Origin: a virus
Direction: 5' to 3' (one strand)
IMG/VR virus record: IMGVR_UViG_3300048930_000192
Span: 67,811 to 131,810 of that record
Length of the DNA stretch: 64,000 bases
The stretch's first letter is position 1. Each line of letters begins with the position of its first letter. A program made the position numbers and the translations under genes. Under the pieces are notes generated by a model that worked only from the letters and a program-made list of their open reading frames with translations, had not been told where the DNA came from and searched no databases. Shown here piece by piece: positions 4,921 through 51,650 of this stretch.

Positions 4921-5313
4921 TTACTTTGTGCCGCCAGGGTTCATTCGCTCTTTGATTTCTTTAAGTTGGTCTTTAGACAAGACCTTTAGATATTTCTTAG
5001 CCACTTCTCGGTTTACGCTATAATAAGACATTATAACCTCGACATCGGCAGTCAACTCATTTTTATGCCACTTTCCACTATACCGTTTGCGTTTTTCTAC
5101 ACCAAACATATAATAATGATATTGCATCATTTTATCTAGATTTGGTCGTATATTCATCTCATTTGCATAAAATATAGTGTCTGGATGATACGAAAATGCA
5201 CGATTTGTTAGATACGGTATATAAGAACTTATATTAGACTCACCTTTAGTGATATCTGCCTTTGCATAAGAAGCATCATTATAGAAATCAAATGGATTAG
5301 CTTTTTCCGTCAT
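4921..5313 (-). CDS. 62: Clamp loader small subunit (gp62)
   Basis: YIPYLTNRAFSYHPDTIFYANEMN..KRKRY..W pattern; T4 45-44-62-regA-43 synteny. Confidence 0.88.
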   Translation of the reverse strand: MTEKANPFDFYNDASYAKADITKGESNISSYIPYLTNRAFSYHPDTIFYANEMNIRPNLDKMMQYHYYMFGVEKRKRYSGKWHKNELTADVEVIMSYYSVNREVAKKYLKVLSKDQLKEIKERMNPGGTK

Positions 5314-6049
5314 CTTTTGGTTCCGGTCTCTTTATTTCGTCAATCGAATCACTAAACATATCAATAATCAGGCTAATCGGTACAGCAACATGAGTATTTG
5401 TTATAGAATCGTATAATCCATGAACATAGAAGCTATCTAGAAATCCCACCCCAATATATCTGTCTATTAAGTTGGATTCAATATAATCTGGCGATAATTT
5501 AGGTTCATGATGCTTTGCCTTGATTGTTCTAATCTTACCATTCAAATCTTCGTATGTTATATCTATTGTATCATTCTTTATTTTGATTAGCGATAGATCT
5601 ATCCATAACGACAATATTCTATCTTTAAAAGACTTGGGATCTGTAGTTATTTCTGAAGGTGCGCGATCTACGATTTGAGTACAAACAAATTTGTTCCAAA
5701 AGTAATCTTCTCTATTTGCCATAAACTCTTTTTTAAGACCAATTACTTTCTTGCAATATTCATCATATTTAAACTTCTGCTGAATTGATCCTATTTCATC
5801 TATAATTTCTAGCTGATCATCTGGTGAGAAGTTAGCAACTTCATTAACAATGATTCTGTGCAATTCAGAACCGGTCTTGATGTCGGTAGAATACAAAATA
5901 TCTTTGAGTTTGTTATAAGTAGACGTATCTTTAGATTTAGATACTATGATATTTTTAATTTCGGTATAATATTCTTCAACTCTATATTTTTTGTGTAGAG
6001 AATGAACGTCTATAATCATGTCATTTGCAGACCGAGTAATGTTTCTCAT
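5297..6049 (-). CDS. Hypothetical protein inserted between genes 44 and 62
   Basis: 250-aa ORF preceded by CATAAATA late-type promoter. Confidence 0.7.
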   Translation of the reverse strand: MRNITRSANDMIIDVHSLHKKYRVEEYYTEIKNIIVSKSKDTSTYNKLKDILYSTDIKTGSELHRIIVNEVANFSPDDQLEIIDEIGSIQQKFKYDEYCKKVIGLKKEFMANREDYFWNKFVCTQIVDRAPSEITTDPKSFKDRILSLWIDLSLIKIKNDTIDITYEDLNGKIRTIKAKHHEPKLSPDYIESNLIDRYIGVGFLDSFYVHGLYDSITNTHVAVPISLIIDMFSDSIDEIKRPEPKDDGKS

Positions 6050-31327: not shown

Positions 31328-31414
31328 GGGCGGATCCCTTAGTCCGGTTTATAGGAGCAGATTCATAATCTGCCGGATAACATCCAATCGTGGGTTCGAA
31401 TCCCACTCCGCCCA
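31328..31414 (+). tRNA. tRNA with CAU anticodon (Met or Ile2) and long variable arm
   Basis: GGGCGGA/TCCGCCC; GCAGA-TTCATAA-TCTGC; GGAT-AAC-ATCC variable arm; canonical T arm. Confidence 0.85.
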
Positions 31415-31980
31415 CTTTGTTTCGATAAACTTCTGGAGATAAAATAAATGCGCCGCAGCTGCAAAATGGAAAAGAAAGAAGTGAAGATTTGGGCAGCTTC
31501 ACTTCTTTGCCTTAGTATTTTTAGCTCAGGAATATTATTTGTTGGGTGTAAAGAGCCATGCCAAACCAATGGCACACCTTCAGCGCCACCAATCACAGCA
31601 ACTATTTGGTGTGATAACTACTATCTGCCTGGTGGAATAAAAGCAACAGGGCCAATTCATAGCAATAGTGGCACAATAACTTTTACTGACGCATCGACCG
31701 GTAAAATCGTTGAAATTCACGGCAATTACATTATTAGGTATGAGTAAAGGACCCCCCAAATGGCGCGTAACAAAGTCATTATGTATGGTCAAGGTTGCTT
31801 TGTTGAAGGCTCGTTTAATATGATGTGTATGAGGCTTCGCCTTGCTGACCGCAAAGCTAATGGCCAGGCCTTTGTAAACGAAAGAATCCTTCGGTTTCCC
31901 AGATCATGGTCAGAAAAGAAGTGTTGGGACTTTTACCAAAAGCGAACTGCAATCGGCGCAATTCTAAGGTGGTAATACTG

Positions 31981-39525: not shown

Positions 39526-39599
39526 GGGTGCGTAGTCCAACCGGCAGAGACAATCGCCTTAAGAGCGATCCAGTACGGGTCCGAATCCCGTGGCACCCA
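39526..39599 (+). tRNA. tRNA-Leu (UAA), short variable loop
   Basis: ATCGC-CTTAAGA-GCGAT; GGGTGC/GCACCC. Confidence 0.85.
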
Positions 39600-44278: not shown

Positions 44279-45160
44279 ATGCCGGGTCGCCGAAGTAACG
44301 AAGATCGTGCAAAGATTATTGCCAGTCTCAAGAAGGATATGTACTACCTTGACGGCTTCGACGTGATTTATGACGATAGTGGCAAGAAAGAGAAGCGGTA
44401 TCTCGATCCTGATACCATGAAGCCACGCGATCCGTATGATGGTGTTGCAGCCATTCAGACTTCGCCGCTTCGTGCGAAGAAGGATATCTGCAAGGATTGC
44501 CCGAACAAGCCCGGGCTACTTGAGGGAATGGTTTATCTGTGGGGGCTGGATCTTGTGCTCGACCCTCGAAACAACCTGACTGTGTATCGTCACCCCGAAA
44601 CTCGTCTTGTGTATAACGGCTACACAGATATCCCCGCTTTCATTGATCCTGGCTCTAGCGAGCGATTCTTCCAGCAAGACCGTGGCGGCATCATCAATCG
44701 CACCAATGGTCCTGCGTGCGTGTTCCCCATCAACCCCGAAGATAACCTGTATATCGTCGATGGTCGCCCACTTGCGCAGGGCGGGCATCTGGATCTTGCT
44801 CGTAAGATTGTAATGGAGCCCGAGAAGCTTACCCTCGACGAGATTTATTCCATCGTCGATGAGGAATCAAAGCGAATTGCGATCGAACGGTTCGGTCTTG
44901 AAGAATTCATCAAAGTGAGTAATGCCAAGGTCCTTGATGAATATGAAAATGTGATTGAGGGAACCCATGAAGCCTTGTTCGAGCTGTATGGCAACAAAGA
45001 GGGTACCATCAAGTTTTCGTTCTTCTGTGGTGTTTGCCGTTCGACTGGCCGCGTTTACTTCATTCGAGTGCCGAATCCCGACGACAATCGAACCATTGAA
45101 GCAGCCAAGAAGTTCATGACTGGCGGGATGGAACCCAACAAGTGCGTTGGTGCAAGTTAA
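44279..45160 (+). CDS. DUF6745-like protein
   Basis: E..RIAIERFG.E.FI..VLD..VCRSTGRVYFIRVP..T.EAA C-terminal pattern. Confidence 0.65.
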   Translation: MPGRRSNEDRAKIIASLKKDMYYLDGFDVIYDDSGKKEKRYLDPDTMKPRDPYDGVAAIQTSPLRAKKDICKDCPNKPGLLEGMVYLWGLDLVLDPRNNLTVYRHPETRLVYNGYTDIPAFIDPGSSERFFQQDRGGIINRTNGPACVFPINPEDNLYIVDGRPLAQGGHLDLARKIVMEPEKLTLDEIYSIVDEESKRIAIERFGLEEFIKVSNAKVLDEYENVIEGTHEALFELYGNKEGTIKFSFFCGVCRSTGRVYFIRVPNPDDNRTIEAAKKFMTGGMEPNKCVGAS

Positions 45161-45233
45161 TAAATAAGTAAGATTGTTTCTTGCTTATATGCCTCTGTGT
45201 ACGATAGTGTGAGAATAAAAGGAGTTTTAGATT

Positions 45234-45692
45234 ATGGCTAAGAATACTGTTGCTGTTGCCGATCCCGTGAAGGTCTTTAACCGAGTGAAGAACTCTGTAA
45301 AGAACCCGAAGCCCGATCCAATCATGCTTTCTAACGTGAATACTCCCGGTGAGTTTGTTCGCCAGGGCGACATTTACGTTACCCTTCTTGAGGGCAAGCC
45401 GACTGGTACTTGCAAGAAGGTTCCTGCTGCAAAGCTGACCAGCAAGGAATTCCAGCTTGCGCCTGGCAACAGCCGTGGCTCTCGCCACATGCTCGATAAT
45501 GTCGATGCTGTGGAGATCTACGATCGTGGCACTCGTGAAGATGGCATCGAAGCTGGTTATGCAATCAAGGTGAACGAGGCTTGCAGCATTGTTCACCCCG
45601 AGCATGGTACTGTCAATCTTGGCAAGGACATGTGGGTTGCTGTTACTTACCAGCTCACCTGGGATCAAGTTGCTCGCCGCGTTCAGGACTAA
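45234..45692 (+). CDS. RQGD..HPEH protein (typical DUF6745 neighbour)
   Basis: VRQGDIY..LAPG..GSRH..VHPEHG. Confidence 0.7.
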   Translation: MAKNTVAVADPVKVFNRVKNSVKNPKPDPIMLSNVNTPGEFVRQGDIYVTLLEGKPTGTCKKVPAAKLTSKEFQLAPGNSRGSRHMLDNVDAVEIYDRGTREDGIEAGYAIKVNEACSIVHPEHGTVNLGKDMWVAVTYQLTWDQVARRVQD

Positions 45693-45766
45693 TACTGAAC
45701 ACCAATGATTCTGTTTGACAATTTGATTATTGTTTCCGCACACTGAAAAGTTGTGCGGAAATTTTT

Positions 45767-46099
45767 ATGACGACAGGAAGAAACACTACATTCCGTGCAG
45801 ATCGTATTCTTTACGATTCTATTAGAATGCCAAATACCGTTTTTTATGATGGTACTATATCTTATGTGGCACGAAAGCACAATAAGATATATATGTACGC
45901 AACCAAGATATATATGTACGCAACCGGCTCATATGAATGCCCGTTTGGTAAGATATATATGTACGCAACCAAGATATATATGTACGCAACCGGCTCATAT
46001 GAATGCCCGTTTGGTAAGATATATATGTACGCAACCGGCTCATATGAATGCCCGTTTGGTGCATTTATAGATCGAACTGGATGGAACCACCTCACCTGA
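45767..46099 (+). CDS. Mini-protein family member with internal tandem expansion
   Basis: FYDGTI..ATGSY..IDRTGW. Confidence 0.75.
   Translation: MTTGRNTTFRADRILYDSIRMPNTVFYDGTISYVARKHNKIYMYATKIYMYATGSYECPFGKIYMYATKIYMYATGSYECPFGKIYMYATGSYECPFGAFIDRTGWNHLT
45884..46060. repeat. In-frame compound tandem repeat AABAABAB (A=21 bp, B=24 bp)
   Basis: A=AAGATATATATGTACGCAACC, B=GGCTCATATGAATGCCCGTTTGGT, exact copies. Confidence 0.95.
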
Positions 46100-46126
46100 G
46101 GTGTGCCGACAACGAGGAATGATGTA

Positions 46127-46516
46127 ATGGCAAAGAAGAAAGAACAAATAAAATATATTGATACCTATGCGGCTATCACCGACCTAATGCAAGTGGTGTT
46201 TAATGCCGAGAGGCCAGGCCCAGGATATTCATACTATCGGTGGTATGATATTAACACGAAAAGTGCAATATCAATATTTCGGTCTTTTAATCCATTTACT
46301 AAAGAAAAGCATACAATAAAGGTTCTGGAAAAGTTCATTAAAATGACGGAATGTGCAATATCTATTGAGGCTGGTGTTAATGGATATTCACTAAAGATGA
46401 TAAAGGATGGTAATACTACGTTACTTAGTTTGGAGAAAACTCTGCCGTATGCAGTTTGTATTGGAATTCTAAACTATTATGGGCATCAAAGGCCAAAATA
46501 TGAAGTGCCGAGATAA
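46127..46516 (+). CDS. Possible phage ABA-sandwich-like protein
   Basis: FNPFT..KVLEK..TLPYAVCIGIL pattern. Confidence 0.45.
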   Translation: MAKKKEQIKYIDTYAAITDLMQVVFNAERPGPGYSYYRWYDINTKSAISIFRSFNPFTKEKHTIKVLEKFIKMTECAISIEAGVNGYSLKMIKDGNTTLLSLEKTLPYAVCIGILNYYGHQRPKYEVPR

Positions 46517-46754
46517 AAGGATAGTTAACAGAAGCGATATTTTTTATGGTAATAAAGATATAGCCATTAAAACTGTTCTGTATGACGGTTCAATTTGGAC
46601 GGGACCTTATAACATAAGTAATCGCAGAATTATAAAGAAAGAAAAATCGGCTCGTTTTGAAAATAACGGAGAATATAACTTTTATGTTCCCGTAGATAAG
46701 TATAATAATACCCTAAATATGTTCGATCCAACCGGAATCATTTCGCAACTCTAA
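46500..46754 (+). CDS. Mini-protein family member
   Basis: LYDGSI..NGEY..FDPTGI. Confidence 0.75.
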   Translation: MKCRDKRIVNRSDIFYGNKDIAIKTVLYDGSIWTGPYNISNRRIIKKEKSARFENNGEYNFYVPVDKYNNTLNMFDPTGIISQL

Positions 46755-46755
46755 T

Positions 46756-46829
46756 GCCCGAATACCAAAATGGCTTAATGGCTCTGGCTGCAACCCAGAT
46801 GTGTCTTGGTTCAAGTCCAAGTTCGGGCT
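46756..46829 (+). tRNA. tRNA-Cys (GCA)
   Basis: GCCCGAA/TTCGGGC, U73; TCTGG-CTGCAAC-CCAGA. Confidence 0.9.
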
Positions 46830-46834
46830 TTGAT

Positions 46835-47044
46835 ATGGAAAATAAACACAAACTTGGTCAATATTGTATCTTTATTCAAGGTTGCGACAATGTGTTTATT
46901 GCATCTATTCATTATTCTGGCGGCATTACTGTTGGTCCATATATTACAGATTATGGGCACCATACTACTGATTCCGATGGTTCATATCGAATTGGACCCA
47001 AAAATTCATACATCGATGAAACTGGTTGTTTGATAATAACATGA
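46835..47044 (+). CDS. Mini-protein family member
   Basis: HYSGGI..DGSY..IDETGC. Confidence 0.75.
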   Translation: MENKHKLGQYCIFIQGCDNVFIASIHYSGGITVGPYITDYGHHTTDSDGSYRIGPKNSYIDETGCLIIT

Positions 47045-47732
47045 AAATATTTAACGCTAAAAATTACGGTTCTATTCCTCATTTGCCTGGCAGTCACTTG
47101 ACTGTTGGCGACTATACTCTTAATGCTGGTCAAGCCAAGATTCTAACGGTAAAGACCAGAGACAAGCACGATACCGTATTTGTACATGAAAAGTTGGATG
47201 GCTCTAATGTTGGTATCTATCGTGAAGGCGATATATTTCATCCAGTTAGTAGATCTGGTAATATGTGTGTAAATTCGCCACTTGAGCAACACCGCATATT
47301 TTACGAATGGGTAAAAACAACTGCGGCTTATTCTTGTTTCTAGAAGATGGTGAACGACTGGTTGGCGAATGGCTTGCACAAGCTCATGGTACTAAATATG
47401 CAATAAATAATAATCCATTTGTCGCATTTGATATTATGAGAGGCTCAACCAGAGCCTTACAATCGGAATTGGATTCAAGAATACCGTCAGAAATACCTCG
47501 ATCCAAACTTCTTCATTCTGGTCAGACAATTTCAGTAGACCAGGCAGATAAACTTCTGGGCGAATACGGCCATCATGGTGCGACAGAGACAGCAGAAGGC
47601 GTGGTATATCGTGTTGAACGTAACGGTGGTGTTGACTTTTTGGGCAAATATGTTAGAAGTGGTGTAGTGCCTGGTAAGTATTTGAGACTGGATCCACCGA
47701 TATGGAACTGGCATCCAAGAAAACTAAATTGA
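47041..47732 (+). CDS. ATP-dependent RNA ligase family protein, split by a -1 frameshift near 47315
   Basis: EKLDGSN (motif I) in 47026-47343; GEW, AFDI, EGVV in 47307-47732. Confidence 0.8.
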
Positions 47733-47750
47733 TTGTGTTAGCGGGGCACT

Positions 47751-48743
47751 TTACGTCTTTTTTATATTTATTTCGTATTTTGCACACCATTTCCTAACAG
47801 CATTATCAGATACACCGTACTTTCTACCCAAAGCAAGAAATGACATTTTTTCTATTTCATCTTTTAGAATTTCTTTAGATGGCCTTGTCACTTTTCTAGA
47901 AGATTCTGCACAACACTCGGTAGAACAAAATTTACCCTTACATTTTTTAATTTTGCAAAATTCGCAACAATTTAATTCTTTCTTTGGTTTATCAAATTTA
48001 GCGAACTTATCCCAATTGGCAGAGGACGCCGTCCTAGAAACGGTGTGTTCGGGGTTCGACTCCCCGAGTTCGCATTTGTTCTTTTTAGATTTGGATTTAC
48101 AAAAAGTTTCTGTTTGGCTATGACAATTTGGACAAATTAATCTTAAATTTTCCAATCTATTATCGTATGATACGCCATTTATGTGATCCATTTGTAAAGT
48201 CAATTTATTATTATTCCACGATGATATACCACAAATATCACATTTATATTCGTGCTTAACTTGCAAAAATCTTTCTTTTACCATTGATTTACATTTTCCG
48301 TGTATCGCAAATATTTCTTCGTTGGGTGTTCTATCTTTCTTCGGGCCAAACTTTGCACCTTTGCTCCATCCCTGACCAGTAAAATGATCGATATTTATAT
48401 TATTTGTTTCTATATAATTTATCAATTTTGATTTGAAAGTCCAAGGATAGTCATTTTTGCCGCCCAATAAAATATATACTCTCCTAATAGACTTACTATT
48501 TTTTATTGCCTCTAATATGAATTCCGGTTCTATTGTATCTATGTCAATTATATTACCGTGCTTTCCGCGCATATGGCTTACGTCTATTTTATGCTTATTA
48601 ATGTAAGCATCTAAGTCTCTATACCAAGCGCCACTATATGGGTCATTTTTATTCAATTTTCGAAAAATTTCAGCCTTAGTCTTACTTTCTTTAATAATCA
48701 AATTTAGTTCTTCATTAAAATCAACAAAGTATCCGGGTTTCAT
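47751..48743 (-). CDS. HNH homing endonuclease with C-terminal HTH
   Basis: C..CG..W..LQMDHING..DNRLENLRLICPNCHSQT; LGRKYGVSDNAVRKW; GGAGG RBS before MKPGY. Confidence 0.92.
   Translation of the reverse strand: MKPGYFVDFNEELNLIIKESKTKAEIFRKLNKNDPYSGAWYRDLDAYINKHKIDVSHMRGKHGNIIDIDTIEPEFILEAIKNSKSIRRVYILLGGKNDYPWTFKSKLINYIETNNINIDHFTGQGWSKGAKFGPKKDRTPNEEIFAIHGKCKSMVKERFLQVKHEYKCDICGISSWNNNKLTLQMDHINGVSYDNRLENLRLICPNCHSQTETFCKSKSKKNKCELGESNPEHTVSRTASSANWDKFAKFDKPKKELNCCEFCKIKKCKGKFCSTECCAESSRKVTRPSKEILKDEIEKMSFLALGRKYGVSDNAVRKWCAKYEINIKKT
48001..48074 (+). tRNA. tRNA-Leu (UAG) embedded antisense in the HNH ORF
   Basis: GCGAACT/AGTTCGC; GCCGT-CCTAGAA-ACGGT; CGGGG-TTCGACT-CCCCG. Confidence 0.85.
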
Positions 48744-48806
48744 CTGAACCTCCATTCTATGCTACTATTTATCTTTTAATGAATTTGGGGTTCAGATATA
48801 TTTTCT

Positions 48807-48835
48807 GGTGATAGGTTCAAGTCCCTTCACCCGCA
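48807..48835 (+). pseudogene. 3' tRNA fragment (Leu-like end)
   Basis: GGTTCAAGTCCCTTCACCCGCA. Confidence 0.55.
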
Positions 48836-48842
48836 TTTTAAT

Positions 48843-50329
48843 ATGAATAGAACCATAATATCAAATGCTATTGCCAGATCGAATGACAAGGGAGCAATTA
48901 TCCTGTGGATCGAATATTCGGGTAAGATTGACGGGAACAGAGTATGGGACCCAAACATTTTAAAATACCTCGATTTCCATGAGAATGGGTCGTATGATAT
49001 AGATTCTGTGGTGTTTGTTGATCCAACGGGAGTAGAGGATAGATGAATAATCTAATAGAAAAAAGAACTATTAATTGGGCGAGTATTCATATACGATACA
49101 AGTTGAATTATAATTTGTTCATATATTACAATGGTCTTATTACTAATTTCCCAAAATATCCAGATTTTAAAATTGACGGATCATATGAGTTATACAATTC
49201 TTGTAGCCCCATTGGAATAATACAATATGACGAAACCGGATTATAATAACCCCAAAATAGATATTGGATATTATTTAATGTCTAGATACGACAATGACGG
49301 GTATGTGAAGATGTATTTTTACTACAACGGTGAATTAATATTAACCCCTTGGCAAACAAATTTTGGCGAAGACGGTGGATATTATTTCGACGGCCTTCAA
49401 TACTTTGAGTTCGATGAAACAGGGATACCAATATATGAGTAAATCTAAACCACATAAGTCATTTTTAATGACTCCCATTAAAAATAAAATGCGATCTAGA
49501 ATTTATTATGATGGATGTATACTTGTTGAAACACGAGAAAAATCTGTATTGGATATCTATAGATTTAAGGAGTATGGTGTGAGTGGCGAATATGGTGGTT
49601 GGAAAACGCCATGGGTAACTGAAACCGGGTTAACAGGGTTCTAGCACCATTATATGGGATTCAATATATATGAGTAAATCTAGAAAATGTAAAGAATGGA
49701 TTAATATAACTGTAAATAAACATATAACTAGAATTTACTATGATGGATCTCATTGGGGGTTTCTGTACGTCGCCACGGGCGATCCACTAGAGTGTTATTT
49801 TGATAACGATGGGAGATATTGGATCATGGGAAAATCCATTGATGAGACTGGGCTATGAAAACTAATGGCATAATAGGATGGCATTCAATATTTAGATCAA
49901 AGAGGGTTACCAAATGAATTTTAGGTCACTTACATCGATTTCAATTTACAATTCATGCGGATCTTTCCTGCACATTTACTATGACGGAAGTATATCGGCC
50001 CGTGGTTGCAGTGGTATTTTTTATGAGGATGGTGGATATCTATCCAATAATTATTATTTTAATGAGACAGGTCTATGAAAACAAATACTAAACTTACTGA
50101 CTGGATCATTATAACTTCTTTTGGTACATATAAAGTCATCCTCGAATACAACGGCAGTATACTGCACTTTTTTACTAAACTGGCATCAAAAGAAGAAAAA
50201 CTAAATTACAATGGTATAAAAATAGCGGAATCAGATGGTGAATATTATATGGTAAATTGCTCAGTCGATTCAACCGGAATTATAGACCAGACCTATAGAG
50301 GTCGATTAAAATTCGATGACTTGACTTGA
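48843..50329 (+). CDS. Second array of 7 mini-protein genes (48843, 49043, 49227, 49435, 49670, 49914, 50075)
   Basis: All with YxG..GxY..(D/T/N)xTG. Confidence 0.85.
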
Positions 50330-50392
50330 CTAGATGATGCCACGAAGATATAATATCTCGAATCGCGTAGTTTTCACGAATCGTATAAATGA

Positions 50393-50465
50393 TGGGTTGT
50401 AGCTCAGTTGGTAGAGCAAAAGATCGATAATCTTTAAGTCATAGGTTCGAGTCCTATCAGCCCAA
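50393..50465 (+). tRNA. tRNA-Ile (GAU)
   Basis: TAGCTCAGTTGGTAGAGC D arm; AAAGA-TCGATAA-TCTTT. Confidence 0.9.
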
Positions 50466-50669
50466 TTTTGGAGATGTATTAAATGCCAGATTTAGAGCGC
50501 CTCACAGATGACCTTATGCTAGACCTAAGCAAAGGCGACGAATCAAAACACCAATATTACATTGGCTATATTACAGGTAAAACTACTGCAAGAAAAGAAA
50601 TTGCATTTGCCGCTATTGTTCTTGGCGTAATTATCTGTGTGTTTGGCTTCTTTGCTTCTTGAATATAAA

Positions 50670-51650
50670 ATGAGCCACATCAATCAAATCTCAAATTCAT
50701 GGCGCCGTCTAGTTGGCACCAATAAAGTGCTTCTGATGGTTTCTGGTGGCGTAGACAGCATGGCTTTAATGGAAACCGCATTACGAGCCAATGTTGACTT
50801 TGAGGTGTTGCATATTACCCATGATATGCGACCTGCAAGCGAAACTGATAATGACCGAAAGATCGTGGAAGAATATTGTGCCGACCACGATGTTCCGTTT
50901 CATAACATTGCCGTTACAAGTGAATCCAAGACTGAAACAGATTACCGCAATCTTCGAGTAAAGGTAATCTGTGATCTTACCAATGAACTTGGCATCAAAT
51001 ATGTTGCCACTGGGCACCATTCAGATGACCAGATTGAAACCATTTTGATGAAGATTTGTCGAGGTTGCGGCCTTGAAGGCCTGAGTGGCATTGCAGAGAC
51101 CTCAGAATATCCGACCGTTGATCCGCAATTTACATATGTTCGGCCACTACTGAATACTCCAAAATCTGTTCTTATTGATATTTGCCTTGAAAATAATGTG
51201 CGATGGCACGAAGATGTTACCAACGCAGATGCCGATATTACTCGGAACGCGATTAGAAACAAGGTTGTGCCACTACTCAAGCAATTGTACCCTGGCATTA
51301 ACTCTGCATTTAATAACATGGCTGACAATTCTCGAATGGCACTTGACCATATTACCAATGAAGTATCTGAATATATTGCCTCGCAATTAGACGAATATGG
51401 CTCTGGCTGCTTTGACCGCAAACAGCTAAAGGCCAAGAGCGATTGCTTCATTCGGTATTGGCTAATTGGTATTCATAGTCATAATAGCTATAATGGTATG
51501 GACAAATTGAAGAAAACGTATACTATGGAATTCATCAAGTGTATTAAATCAACCAAAGTAAGGAACACTGTAATGAGATATGGTAATTGCGAAATGTTCT
51601 TTGCCAGAGATAAGATTTACGTTATTGGTCAACCGCATAATCAAAAATAA
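50670..51650 (+). CDS. tilS: tRNA(Ile)-lysidine synthetase
   Basis: VSGGVDSMAL PP-loop, TGHHSDDQIETILM..RG.GL.GL.GI, VRPLL, W.ED.TN..RNAIR. Confidence 0.9.
   Translation: MSHINQISNSWRRLVGTNKVLLMVSGGVDSMALMETALRANVDFEVLHITHDMRPASETDNDRKIVEEYCADHDVPFHNIAVTSESKTETDYRNLRVKVICDLTNELGIKYVATGHHSDDQIETILMKICRGCGLEGLSGIAETSEYPTVDPQFTYVRPLLNTPKSVLIDICLENNVRWHEDVTNADADITRNAIRNKVVPLLKQLYPGINSAFNNMADNSRMALDHITNEVSEYIASQLDEYGSGCFDRKQLKAKSDCFIRYWLIGIHSHNSYNGMDKLKKTYTMEFIKCIKSTKVRNTVMRYGNCEMFFARDKIYVIGQPHNQK

Follow-up and report, generated by a model that had tools for sequence, protein, structure and literature searches.

A leucine tRNA gene in a wastewater phage apparently overwritten by an HNH endonuclease gene that bears a predicted substitute tRNA-Leu antisense within its reading frame

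In a phage from wastewater, comparison with related loci confirms an arrangement in which a leucine tRNA gene appears to have been overwritten by a selfish HNH endonuclease gene that bears, antisense within its own ORF, a predicted substitute tRNA-Leu. The window analysed is a stretch of 64 000 nt from a 131,810-nt viral record. A first-pass annotation of this DNA had proposed a homing endonuclease that destroys its tRNA target while supplying a replacement within its own coding sequence, making itself hard to lose; this interpretation is supported by the comparisons, and under it the enzyme would cleave the intact tRNA-Leu gene and the embedded tRNA would be processed and charged. The features of the locus are as follows.

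47026–47732, plus strand: RNA-ligase gene (PF09414) on the left flank, interrupted in the window by a frameshift (ORF list, Pfam)
47741–47745, plus strand: 5′ remnant of the resident class II tRNA-Leu(UAG), GCGGG, tRNA positions 1–5 (TTAGCGGG is common to the relative L302)
47746–48812, no strand assigned: inserted cassette of 1067 nt that displaced about 56 nt from the resident gene for tRNA-Leu(UAG) (junction alignments with L302)
47751–48755, minus strand: predicted HNH homing-endonuclease ORF, 334 aa (ORF, Pfam and alignment)
47766–47966, minus strand: C-terminal Cys4 cluster and helix-turn-helix, residues 264–330 (invariant columns; pLDDT 77–93)
48001–48074, plus strand: embedded 74-nt tRNA-Leu(UAG) with a short variable arm, antisense to HNH residues 228–252 (ARAGORN, Rfam)
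48111–48242, minus strand: HNH nuclease motif, residues 172–215 (PF01844; pLDDT 85–89)
48405–48713, minus strand: two N-terminal three-helix modules, residues 15–54 and 77–117 (alignment; AF2 helices)
48813–48835, plus strand: 3′ remnant of the resident tRNA-Leu(UAG), comprising T-stem, T-loop, acceptor 3′ strand and A73 (aligns with L302:3721–3743)

The resident tRNA-Leu gene and mobility of the cassette

The gene order in L302, which is syntenic with the window, is tRNA-Cys, RNA ligase, an intact 85-nt class II tRNA-Leu(tag) with a variable stem-loop, small ORFs, tRNA-Ile(gat) and the MPDLERLTD ORF. An HNH-free relative with an intact tRNA-Leu running from GCGGG to CCCGCA had been suggested as a check on the first reading, and the L302 gene is of this kind, starting with GCGGG and ending with CACCCGCA. 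The distance from the RNA-ligase stop to GCGGG is 8 nt in the window and 7 nt in L302. The GCGGG at 47741, originally noted as one flank of the element, is a chance-level 5-mer when taken alone but lies within an 8-nt match to the start of the L302 tRNA-Leu, and the Leu-like tRNA 3′ end noted to the right of the element, AGGTTCAAGTCCCTTCACCCGCA, aligns with the region from the T-loop to the 3′ end of the L302 tRNA-Leu(UAG). What is left of the resident tRNA in the window is its first 5 and last 23 nt, with the D and anticodon arms absent and tRNA positions 6 to approximately 50 replaced by the cassette. The T-arm of the 3′ remnant is perfect in a second, near-identical relative, L300, while two of its five pairs are lost in the window. 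In the left flank, where the RNA-ligase gene is frameshifted, the contigs of sequencing runs X1 and X6 have an additional G after 47316.

The cassette is polymorphic at this one syntenic site, being present in the window and in L300 and absent from L302, the sole cassette-free relative found. A contig of 4763 nt from run X1 spans 46776–49246, including the cassette, and pieces occur in runs from four studies; no empty-site allele, and no contig joining across the cassette, was seen in four sequencing runs. Two other readings of the layout were rejected. A group I intron with an endonuclease ORF is at odds with the position of the tRNA halves, which do not flank the cassette, and no Rfam intron family was found at 45000–51500 with E up to 10. 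A split or permuted tRNA assembled from the two remnants could form just five acceptor pairs, the D and anticodon arms being missing.

In the one genome pair available for this contrast, the window and L300, the cassette is 97.4% identical (1043 of 1071 columns), compared with 88.8% (588/662) in the left flank and 80.4% (37/46) in the right flank. The greater similarity of the cassette points to recent lateral movement, but could in part reflect a different constraint on the cassette sequence. The HNH family to which the protein belongs is very large, an E-value limit of 0.001 giving 25,310 representative clusters, and is habitually found near tRNA genes: of 80 IMG/VR loci that contain a member, 78 have tRNAs within 4 kb, and a tRNA starts no more than 120 nt downstream of 39 of 99 family gene copies, on the same strand in 35 of these 39. 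Leucine tRNAs are enriched among the downstream tRNAs (13/39, against 96 of 612 tRNAs overall; p 0.005).

Approximately 56 nt of the resident gene were replaced and there is no clean insertion, which sets the founding event apart from a simple homing insertion. This agrees with an alternative in which the HNH protein does not home on tRNA-Leu at all, the layout being the outcome of illegitimate recombination as a tRNA cluster was reshuffled, with some other target or role for the nuclease; phage HNH proteins also have non-homing roles, and most members of this family are located between same-strand tRNAs and not inside one. Such an explanation is nevertheless unlikely given the presence or absence of the cassette at a single syntenic site, its closer similarity than the flanks between the window and L300, the tRNA-Leu enrichment near family genes and a homologue in the locus L415 that abuts a truncated tRNA-Leu, a 5′ fragment of about 33 nt adjoining its HNH stop. 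There is also a precedent in T4 SegB, a free-standing homing endonuclease of the GIY-YIG type in the T4 tRNA cluster, the recognition site of which includes tRNA T-stem-loop DNA (PMC2330249); the right junction of the cassette is likewise at the T-stem.

The embedded tRNA-Leu(UAG)

The full cloverleaf that had been noticed on the plus strand within the minus-strand HNH frame was recovered independently by ARAGORN, as a 74-nt tRNA-Leu(tag) at 48001–48074, and by the Rfam tRNA model (RF00005), which it matches over its full length (model positions 1–71) with 45.2 bits against a gathering threshold of 29 (E 2.1e-7); the ORF at 47751–48755 runs across it. Its minimum free energy has a z-score of −3.15. 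The same 74-nt stretch would serve both as a tRNA gene, on the main transcription strand, and as 25 antisense codons, and these encode CELGESNPEHTVSRTASSANWDKFA (residues 228–252) in the linker from the nuclease to the C-terminal Cys/HTH region, as first described. A pattern combining a Leu D-loop, a T-loop and antisense CPNCH codons was matched once in the window and in none of 100 shuffles.

The UAG anticodon, the 3′ A discriminator (A73) and the Leu-type D-loop are those of a bacterial tRNA-Leu; the D-loop, CCCAATTGGC, is a leucine hallmark, as tRNA-Leu makes up 112 of the 115 phage tRNAs retrieved with the pattern. Among the ten tRNAs of the 131,810-nt record the embedded copy is the sole Leu(UAG), and it has the same anticodon as the L302 gene, in line with the proposal that the cassette supplies a replacement. 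Approximately half of its positions differ from the L302-type resident tRNA, which also belongs to the other variable-arm class: the embedded tRNA has a 5-nt variable region in place of the long class II arm. Bacterial tRNA-Leu has such a long arm, and charging of the short-armed form by the host LeuRS is an assumption; short Leu tRNAs (73–78 nt) are frequent in phage clusters, accounting for 36 of the 97 Leu tRNAs of the loci examined. The anticodon loop, CCUAGAA, places C at position 33, where U is near-universal. In the relatives P0002–P0007 a Ser-Lys pair at the corresponding residues forces U33, as deduced from the protein sequence, and the C33 tRNA may be impaired in this lineage.

C33 and the absence of a long variable arm, together with a mismatch at one D-stem pair and an Rfam score below those of the two neighbouring tRNAs scanned with it (45 bits, against 57 and 70), would fit a cassette that merely destroyed tRNA-Leu(UAG), the cloverleaf being a dead or dying relic that survives as a protein linker. 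The homologues make this quite improbable. Protein homologues at 47–87% identity have a cloverleaf-compatible linker in which compensatory changes appear as paired amino-acid replacements, each pair change costing a replacement in the protein; in P0001–P0007, P0013, P0121 and P0123 the tRNAs are deduced from the protein sequence alone. The linkers of P0002, P0003 and P0004 (47–66% identical) are compatible with a complete cloverleaf in an unchanged register, with one, two and one impossible pairs out of 21, respectively, whereas no more than one impossible pair was found in only 7 of 29,008 control windows, the mode being eight. The double changes forced, as deduced from protein sequences, are A-U to G-C at pair 4–70, U-A to G-C or A-U at 7–67, C-G to U-A at 29–43 and U-A to G-C at 32–40. 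In P0001 (86% identical) the linker has just two replacements, V to L and T to R, one on either side of pair 31–41, and these permit a change from G-C to C-G. Elsewhere in the family the linkers are hypervariable, and between the window and L300 the tRNA is identical at 74 of 74 positions, whereas 28 of the 1071 cassette columns, all outside the tRNA, show differences. The cloverleaf thus seems to have been kept under selection, through compensatory change, while embedded.

The locus L301 presents the opposite of what constraint on a linker alone would predict, as its protein frame is gone and its tRNA is intact. An intact tRNA-Leu(taa) stands beside an HNH relic of 25 codons, SHKINNLTLLCPNCHAQTSTYCRKK followed by a stop; there is no ORF of 80 aa or longer, and stops occur within the antisense reading of the tRNA. 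No convincing remnant of a disrupted tRNA or of the C-terminal domain was found in L301 with E up to 10. The suggestion that the element makes itself hard to lose therefore holds for the cassette DNA, which embedding would shield from clean deletion, and fails for the nuclease, which is not shielded from mutational decay.

That homologous HNH proteins might also embed tRNAs, another point raised by the first-pass annotation, is borne out at the DNA level by L415, where the HNH and Cys4/HTH regions of a 34%-identical homologue are separated by an antisense class II tRNA-Leu(CAA) of 84–87 nt (50.5 bits in Rfam), and at the protein level by P0002, P0003 and P0004. The layout is rare: a cloverleaf-compatible linker occurs in about 5% of the closest 233 family members, and the embedded arrangement in none of 80 loci of distant members. 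A protein search limited to the linker returned P0001 as its sole match. A strict embedded-tRNA pattern had no match in IMG/VR, and D-loop patterns retrieved ordinary tRNA-Leu genes there, with a tRNA in an HNH frame in none of the 119 and 122 matches screened; in one of these matches, L246, an HNH gene begins just past the tRNA. A single-protein scan of IMG/VR gave no relative, and in the GenBank phage collection, searched in distant mode, no record covered more than 3% of 46500–50500.

The endonuclease protein

The minus-strand ORF is intact, and its real start is likely to be the second ATG, at 48743, which is preceded by GGAGG and would yield a product of 330 aa like that of P0001. The HNH motif (PF01844, residues 172–215) scores 24 bits against a Pfam cutoff of 21.4. 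In an alignment of 16 sequences, Asp190, His191, Asn203 and His212 fall in invariant columns, as do Cys172, Cys175, Cys208 and Cys211, which form two CxxC pairs, a zinc site around the HNH motif. The invariant residues of the C-terminal domain are Cys264, Cys267, Cys277, Cys281, Gly310, Val315, Ser316, Lys322 and Trp323. In the AF2 model the N-terminal modules comprise helices 15–23, 27–33 and 42–54, and 77–85, 90–96 and 105–117, respectively; the second module lies in an insertion common to P0001 and L300 only among the aligned sequences. Residues 215–258 have pLDDT values below 50 with confident domains on either side, and the linker between the HNH and Cys4/HTH domains is accordingly modelled as disordered.

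It is very unlikely that the long ORF is an accidental open antisense frame covering two genes, one for a short HNH protein and one for a distinct DNA-binding protein, on either side of the tRNA. Short forms do exist: among 57 IMG/VR loci where an antisense HNH motif adjoins a tRNA 3′ end, 56 are HNH-only, stopping at or in the tRNA, and one has the full architecture. However, the reading frame continues uninterrupted through the tRNA, always in phase with the conserved Cys4/HTH domain, in the window, L300, L415 and at least seven database proteins, no start-codon context is present for a separate downstream gene, and the two-domain architecture is the family norm even where there is no tRNA.

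No second copy of the HNH gene is present in the 131,810-nt record. A scan for promoters and terminators gave 26 promoter-like sites, compared with 19.5 ± 3.4 in shuffles, and is uninformative. Upstream of the HNH start, TTGATA-18-TAAAAT on the minus strand (48864–48835) matches the promoter consensus, as a consensus match only.

Proposed mechanism and relation to known systems

The reading preferred here, and held to be fairly probable, is that a free-standing HNH homing cassette replaced tRNA-Leu(UAG), brings a nested substitute, spreads by homing and is tolerated cheaply. The cassette would be a unit of a very large phage family of such endonucleases resident in tRNA clusters. In a mixed infection, the enzyme would cut the intact tRNA-Leu(UAG) gene of a cassette-free phage in or beside the part that is missing from the donor, and repair off the cassette-bearing genome would copy the cassette in, with the ligase flank and the T-arm flank as homology. 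The recipient would lose its tRNA-Leu(UAG) and gain the nested one, which would keep the cost of invasion low. The nested tRNA would be cut out of rightward transcripts, as with the other nine tRNAs, and after fixation the tRNA may outlast a decaying nuclease.

A more elaborate version, which we regard as doubtful, is that the cassette is a 'tRNA-swap' device: it would erase a class II tRNA-Leu, install a short-arm C33 isoacceptor that resists host tRNA-cleaving defences, spread between phages and be tolerated for its anti-defence tRNA, and the short-arm tRNA-Leu genes of phages would in part be leftovers after nuclease decay of the kind found in L301. Phage tRNAs are now viewed as counter-defence tools (PMC13096335). 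More generally, the cassette offers a concrete vehicle for the movement and exchange of tRNA isoacceptors between phages.

The association of homing endonucleases with tRNA genes is widespread, and SegB drives its own inheritance together with that of neighbouring tRNA genes at the expense of a rival phage's tRNA region (PMC2330249; PMC13096335). The present element resembles SegB in being a selfish nuclease gene in a phage tRNA cluster. It differs in its HNH rather than GIY-YIG nuclease, in holding a tRNA inside its ORF where SegB lies between tRNA genes with its cargo adjacent, and in overwriting its target tRNA, which SegB as described does not do.

In the intronless homing or marker exclusion of free-standing T4 endonucleases such as SegF and MobE, the donor has a cleavage-resistant version and gene conversion replaces the recipient allele. 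The cassette would similarly carry a resistant version of the function that is presumed to be cut in the recipient; on the other hand, the resistant version in those systems is an orthologous allele next to the endonuclease gene, whereas here the target is destroyed and a non-orthologous isoacceptor is nested antisense. Some integrative elements use tRNA genes as insertion sites and bring along a copy of the 3′ end of the tRNA. They too are mobile DNA that makes good, out of its own sequence, the function lost at a targeted tRNA gene, but they rely on an integrase and site-specific recombination and reconstitute the original tRNA with a partial duplicate, while the cassette would give a whole different tRNA gene and leave the old one broken. 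Endonuclease genes within self-splicing introns or inteins, such as the bacterial group I introns in tRNA genes, likewise enter a useful gene and leave it functional; unlike these, the cassette would achieve rescue by replacement and not by splicing, and it is the useful gene that is nested in the selfish one.

Homing endonuclease genes spare their hosts by residing in introns, inteins or intergenic sites. The arrangement described here suggests a third route into a useful gene, in which the target is overwritten and a predicted working substitute is carried nested in the invader's own coding sequence. The nearest case of a nested tRNA is reportedly a tRNA-Pro-like sequence within the mitochondrial MutS of an octocoral, and in the literature searched no description was found of a homing endonuclease whose ORF contains a tRNA gene. 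The locus also represents dual coding on opposite strands by an RNA gene and a protein linker, in which base-pair covariation becomes visible as paired amino-acid replacements. Annotation pipelines that forbid overlap between tRNA genes and coding sequences lose one of the two genes at such a locus.

Anatomy of the cassette and its empty site

The record, of which the window forms the final 64 kb of 131,810 nt (estimated completeness 72%), has ten tRNA genes, all inside the window and all on the plus strand, as are the ORFs flanking the HNH cassette on either side. The elements of the cassette and its borders are the following.

47741-47745: 5' remnant of the resident tRNA-Leu (tRNA positions 1-5), contained in the retained TTAGCGGG, from alignment with L302
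47751-48755, minus strand: HNH ORF of 334 codons, Pfam PF01844
48001-48074, plus strand: tRNA-Leu(tag), from ARAGORN and the Rfam tRNA model
48813-48835: 3' remnant of the resident tRNA-Leu, AGGTTCAAGTCCCTTCACCCGCA (T-stem to 3' end), from alignment with L302

The PF01844 match covers residues 172-215 of the HNH ORF (24 bits against a cutoff of 21.4). At the start of the ORF, ATGGAGGTTCAGATG, GGAGG precedes the second ATG, so that the true product is probably one of 330 residues, like the homologue P0001. The cloverleaf that the first-pass annotation had placed inside the open minus-strand frame is recovered at 48001-48074 by both ARAGORN and the Rfam model (45.2 bits, gathering threshold 29, E 2.1e-7), and ORF codons 228-252, its reverse complement, translate as CELGESNPEHTVSRTASSANWDKFA.

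It had been set out beforehand that a cassette-free relative should have an intact tRNA-Leu at this position. Scanning with the neighbouring RNA-ligase protein (PF09414) yielded such a relative, L302, with an 89% identical ligase and an 85-nt tRNA-Leu(tag) at the empty site.

Window: tRNA-Cys (46756), ligase (47026-47732), HNH cassette, small ORFs, tRNA-Ile(gat) (50393), MPDLERLTD ORF (50483)
L302: tRNA-Cys, ligase, 85-nt tRNA-Leu(tag), small ORFs, tRNA-Ile(gat), MPDLERLTD ORF, PP-loop (TilS-like) gene

The L302 tRNA-Leu is a canonical class II tRNA with U33, anticodon UAG and a variable stem-loop (MFE -37.7 kcal/mol), beginning with GCGGGTG and ending in CACCCGCA. The GCGGG at 47741, noted earlier as able to pair with a Leu-like tRNA 3' end, and the 3' piece at 48813-48835 align to the two ends of this gene, 1067 nt (47746-48812) standing in place of about 56 nt of it. 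The same cassette is present in L300, a 1793-nt metagenome contig whose 3' remnant retains a pairing T-stem (ATAGG/CCTGT), while two of the five T-stem pairs are gone in the window, as expected for a decaying tRNA remnant. The cassette has very probably supplanted a resident tRNA-Leu and bears a nested one.

The embedded tRNA as a probable selected gene

The resident gene is destroyed, and the embedded tRNA is the sole tRNA-Leu(UAG) of the 131,810-nt record and has the anticodon of the resident type in L302, which agrees with the earlier proposal that the HNH coding sequence supplies a replacement. Its D-loop, CCCAATTGGC, is a hallmark of tRNA-Leu, 112 of the 115 phage tRNAs fitting the pattern being Leu; all 112 Leu tRNAs matched by the D-loop/T-loop pattern measure 73-78 nt, with no long variable arm. 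Short Leu tRNAs of 73-78 nt (36/97 in the HNH loci) are common in phage clusters, and a second one in the window, Leu(taa), lies at 39526-39599. On the other hand, position 33 of the anticodon loop (CCUAGAA) is C and not U, one D-stem pair is non-standard and the variable arm is short, all of which count against a genuine tRNA gene under selection. The Ser-Lys of P0002-P0007 forces U33, so that, in the lineage of the window, replacing Lys by Arg corresponds to a change of U33 to C.

The linker that the tRNA encodes is hypervariable across the family, yet in P0001-P0005 and P0007 (47-87% overall identity) it is conserved as ..[DE]SNP..SK..SSANWD... Working from the protein sequences of these homologues, we asked which tRNA base pairs their synonymous codons permit. 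The full cloverleaf is permitted in the same register in P0002, P0003 and P0004, with one, two and one impossible pairs of 21, respectively; of 29,008 control windows taken from a further 113 proteins of the family, seven had at most one impossible pair and 75 at most two, the mode being eight. Where first or second codon positions fix both sides, the codons force changed but still paired bases: pair 4-70 is A-U in the window and G-C in P0003 and P0004, pair 7-67 is U-A in the window, G-C in P0002 and A-U in P0004, pair 29-43 is C-G in the window and U-A in P0004, and pair 32-40 is U-A in the window and G-C in P0002. The only two replacements between the linkers of P0001 and the window, V to L and T to R, fall on opposite sides of pair 31-41 and permit a change from G-C to C-G.

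The tRNA also outlasts the nuclease. On L301, a 1605-nt contig, an intact tRNA-Leu(taa) accompanies a 25-codon nuclease relic, SHKINNLTLLCPNCHAQTSTYCRKK, that ends at a stop and matches HNH family members with E 1e-7 to 2e-9; stops interrupt the frame antisense to the tRNA, and no ORF of 80 residues is found on the contig. Also on L301, complementary ends (GCAGAGG ... CCTCTGC) and a T-arm-like motif, GGGTTCAACTCCC, give a stretch at about 445-512 a tRNA-like look, but it is not called by ARAGORN.

The HNH family and the spread of the nested layout

A word-indexed search found 3719 homologues at E<=0.001 among 4571 candidates; with the same E limit, 25,310 of 1.84 billion representatives were matched in a profile search (3818 at E<=1e-30). 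The usual architecture opens with a three-helix module at the N-terminus (two copies in the window, P0001 and L300) and continues with an HNH motif terminating in CPNCHSQT, the hypervariable linker, and a Cys4 cluster with a helix-turn-helix that terminates in GRKYGVSDNAVRKW. The window protein has the full set of catalytic and zinc-binding residues. Its AlphaFold2 model (mean pLDDT 72.5) is confident in the HNH and C-terminal domains and falls below 50 at residues 215-258, placing the tRNA-encoded peptide in a predicted disordered linker.

The habitat of the family is the phage tRNA cluster: tRNAs lie within 4 kb in 78 of 80 IMG/VR loci with distant members (28-44% identity). A tRNA starts within 120 nt past the last aligned residue in 39 of 99 HNH gene copies, on the same strand in 35 of the 39, and tRNA-Leu accounts for 13 of these 39 against 96 of the 612 tRNAs of the same loci (Fisher p 0.005). 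None of the 80 loci has a tRNA between the HNH and C-terminal parts, which makes the embedded layout special. The check suggested earlier, whether homologous HNH genes embed tRNAs, gave a positive answer for L300 and for a distant homologue, L415, and a negative one in these 80 loci.

A codon-compatibility scan of the linkers of 233 family proteins (at most one impossible pair, with conserved U8, A14, T-loop and G53-C61), a threshold that misses P0003 and P0005, flagged 13 proteins against two of 233 shuffled-linker controls. Ten were antisense, including the window, P0001, P0002, P0004, P0007, P0013, P0121 and P0123, and three sense (P0093, P0142 and P0199). At the DNA level, a strict pattern for the embedded layout matched only L300 and L301 in a set of 241 million metagenome records; in IMG/VR its sole match was the record of the window itself. 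A looser pattern, which asks for an antisense T-arm at a distance of 30-60 nt from the CPNCH codons, gave 109 IMG/VR stretches, 57 of them coinciding with a called tRNA (Leu 27, Gln 14); in 52 of these 57 the HNH frame terminates at the tRNA or inside it, and in five it reads through.

Only L415 among the 57 has the complete nested architecture. Its homologue, 34% identical, has a class II tRNA-Leu(caa) of 84-87 nt (Rfam 50.5 bits) lying antisense in the stretch that separates the HNH part from the Cys4/HTH part. A 5' fragment of about 33 nt from a tRNA-Leu-like gene adjoins the HNH stop codon, and the D-arms of this fragment and of the embedded tRNA are identical. With L415 and the window, two distant branches show a tRNA-Leu gene both invaded and replaced. 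The L415 cluster contains several tRNA wrecks. By the HNH start, on the minus strand (1735-1790 and 1785-1860), lie a short tRNA-Leu(taa) of 76 nt and, directly after it, a 3' fragment of another tRNA, with a variable stem-loop, T-arm ACGGG/CCCGT and acceptor CGCTTGC-A. This 3' fragment and the 5' one, at opposite ends of the cassette, do not match.

At 56 IMG/VR loci (L312-L4xx), an HNH-only gene without the Cys4/HTH domain runs antisense and terminates at or inside a tRNA 3' end. This recurrent convergent layout may be a precursor of the embedded form, and its frequency suggests an origin by read-through and fusion: an antisense HNH gene adjoining a tRNA, the suggested ancestor, could gain a frame through it and fuse with a DNA-binding domain encoded beyond the tRNA.

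Mobility, proposed mechanism and neighbouring genes

Between the window and L300, the cassette is 97.4% identical (1043/1071 columns) and its embedded tRNA entirely so (74/74), against 88.8% (588/662) in the ligase flank and 80.4% (37/46) in the right flank; the cassette thus appears to be younger than the backbones that carry it. The cassette or pieces of it occur in Logan contigs of wastewater and sludge runs from four studies, including a 4763-nt contig of run X1 that covers 46776-49246 at roughly 93% identity.

In the mechanism that we propose, relatives without the cassette would have their intact tRNA-Leu(UAG) gene cut by the enzyme, in or beside the segment absent from donors, and recombinational repair would copy in the cassette, whose left boundary is the ligase gene with GCGGG and whose right boundary is the T-arm. 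The nested tRNA would make up for the lost tRNA-Leu(UAG), and the nuclease, transcribed against the regional flow, would be dispensable after fixation and would decay, as in L301. We consider this mechanism as a whole, in which the tRNA-Leu gene is cleaved and the nested tRNA works, to be likely, if less secure than the anatomy.

In intronless homing, a resistant allele takes the place of a rival's allele. Phage tRNA clusters are likewise known to harbour free-standing homing endonucleases, SegB among them (PMC2330249, PMC13096335). The 27-bp site of T4 SegB includes DNA of a tRNA T-stem-loop, and the right junction of the cassette, at the T-stem, resembles it (PMC2330249). An endonuclease gene that, like this one, holds within its ORF, on the other strand, the substitute for a gene it destroys was not found in the literature searched.

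The RNA-ligase gene (PF09414, 47026-47732) is intact in L300 (216 residues) and L302 (230 residues) and split in the window into two ORFs that overlap (47026-47343 and 47307-47732). One additional G after 47316 is present in contigs of runs X1 and X6, and the split is either a genuine frameshift or an assembly error. To the right of the cassette, 48843-50329 contains at least seven small plus-strand ORFs (54-93 residues), paralogous in appearance, which share YYDGS/YYNG-like cores and C-termini of the type ..DETGL/NETGL/DSTGI; the first has no Pfam match, and similar ORFs are present in L302. Downstream of tRNA-Ile(gat), L302 encodes at 4945-5916 a PP-loop ATPase (PF01171, E 1.5e-39) of the tRNA(Ile)-lysidine synthase family; judged by this gene content, with the RNA ligase and the ten tRNAs, the region is a tRNA-centred module. 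The ARAGORN tRNA-Met(cat) at 31328-31415 of the window is, at 88 nt, unusually long for class I.
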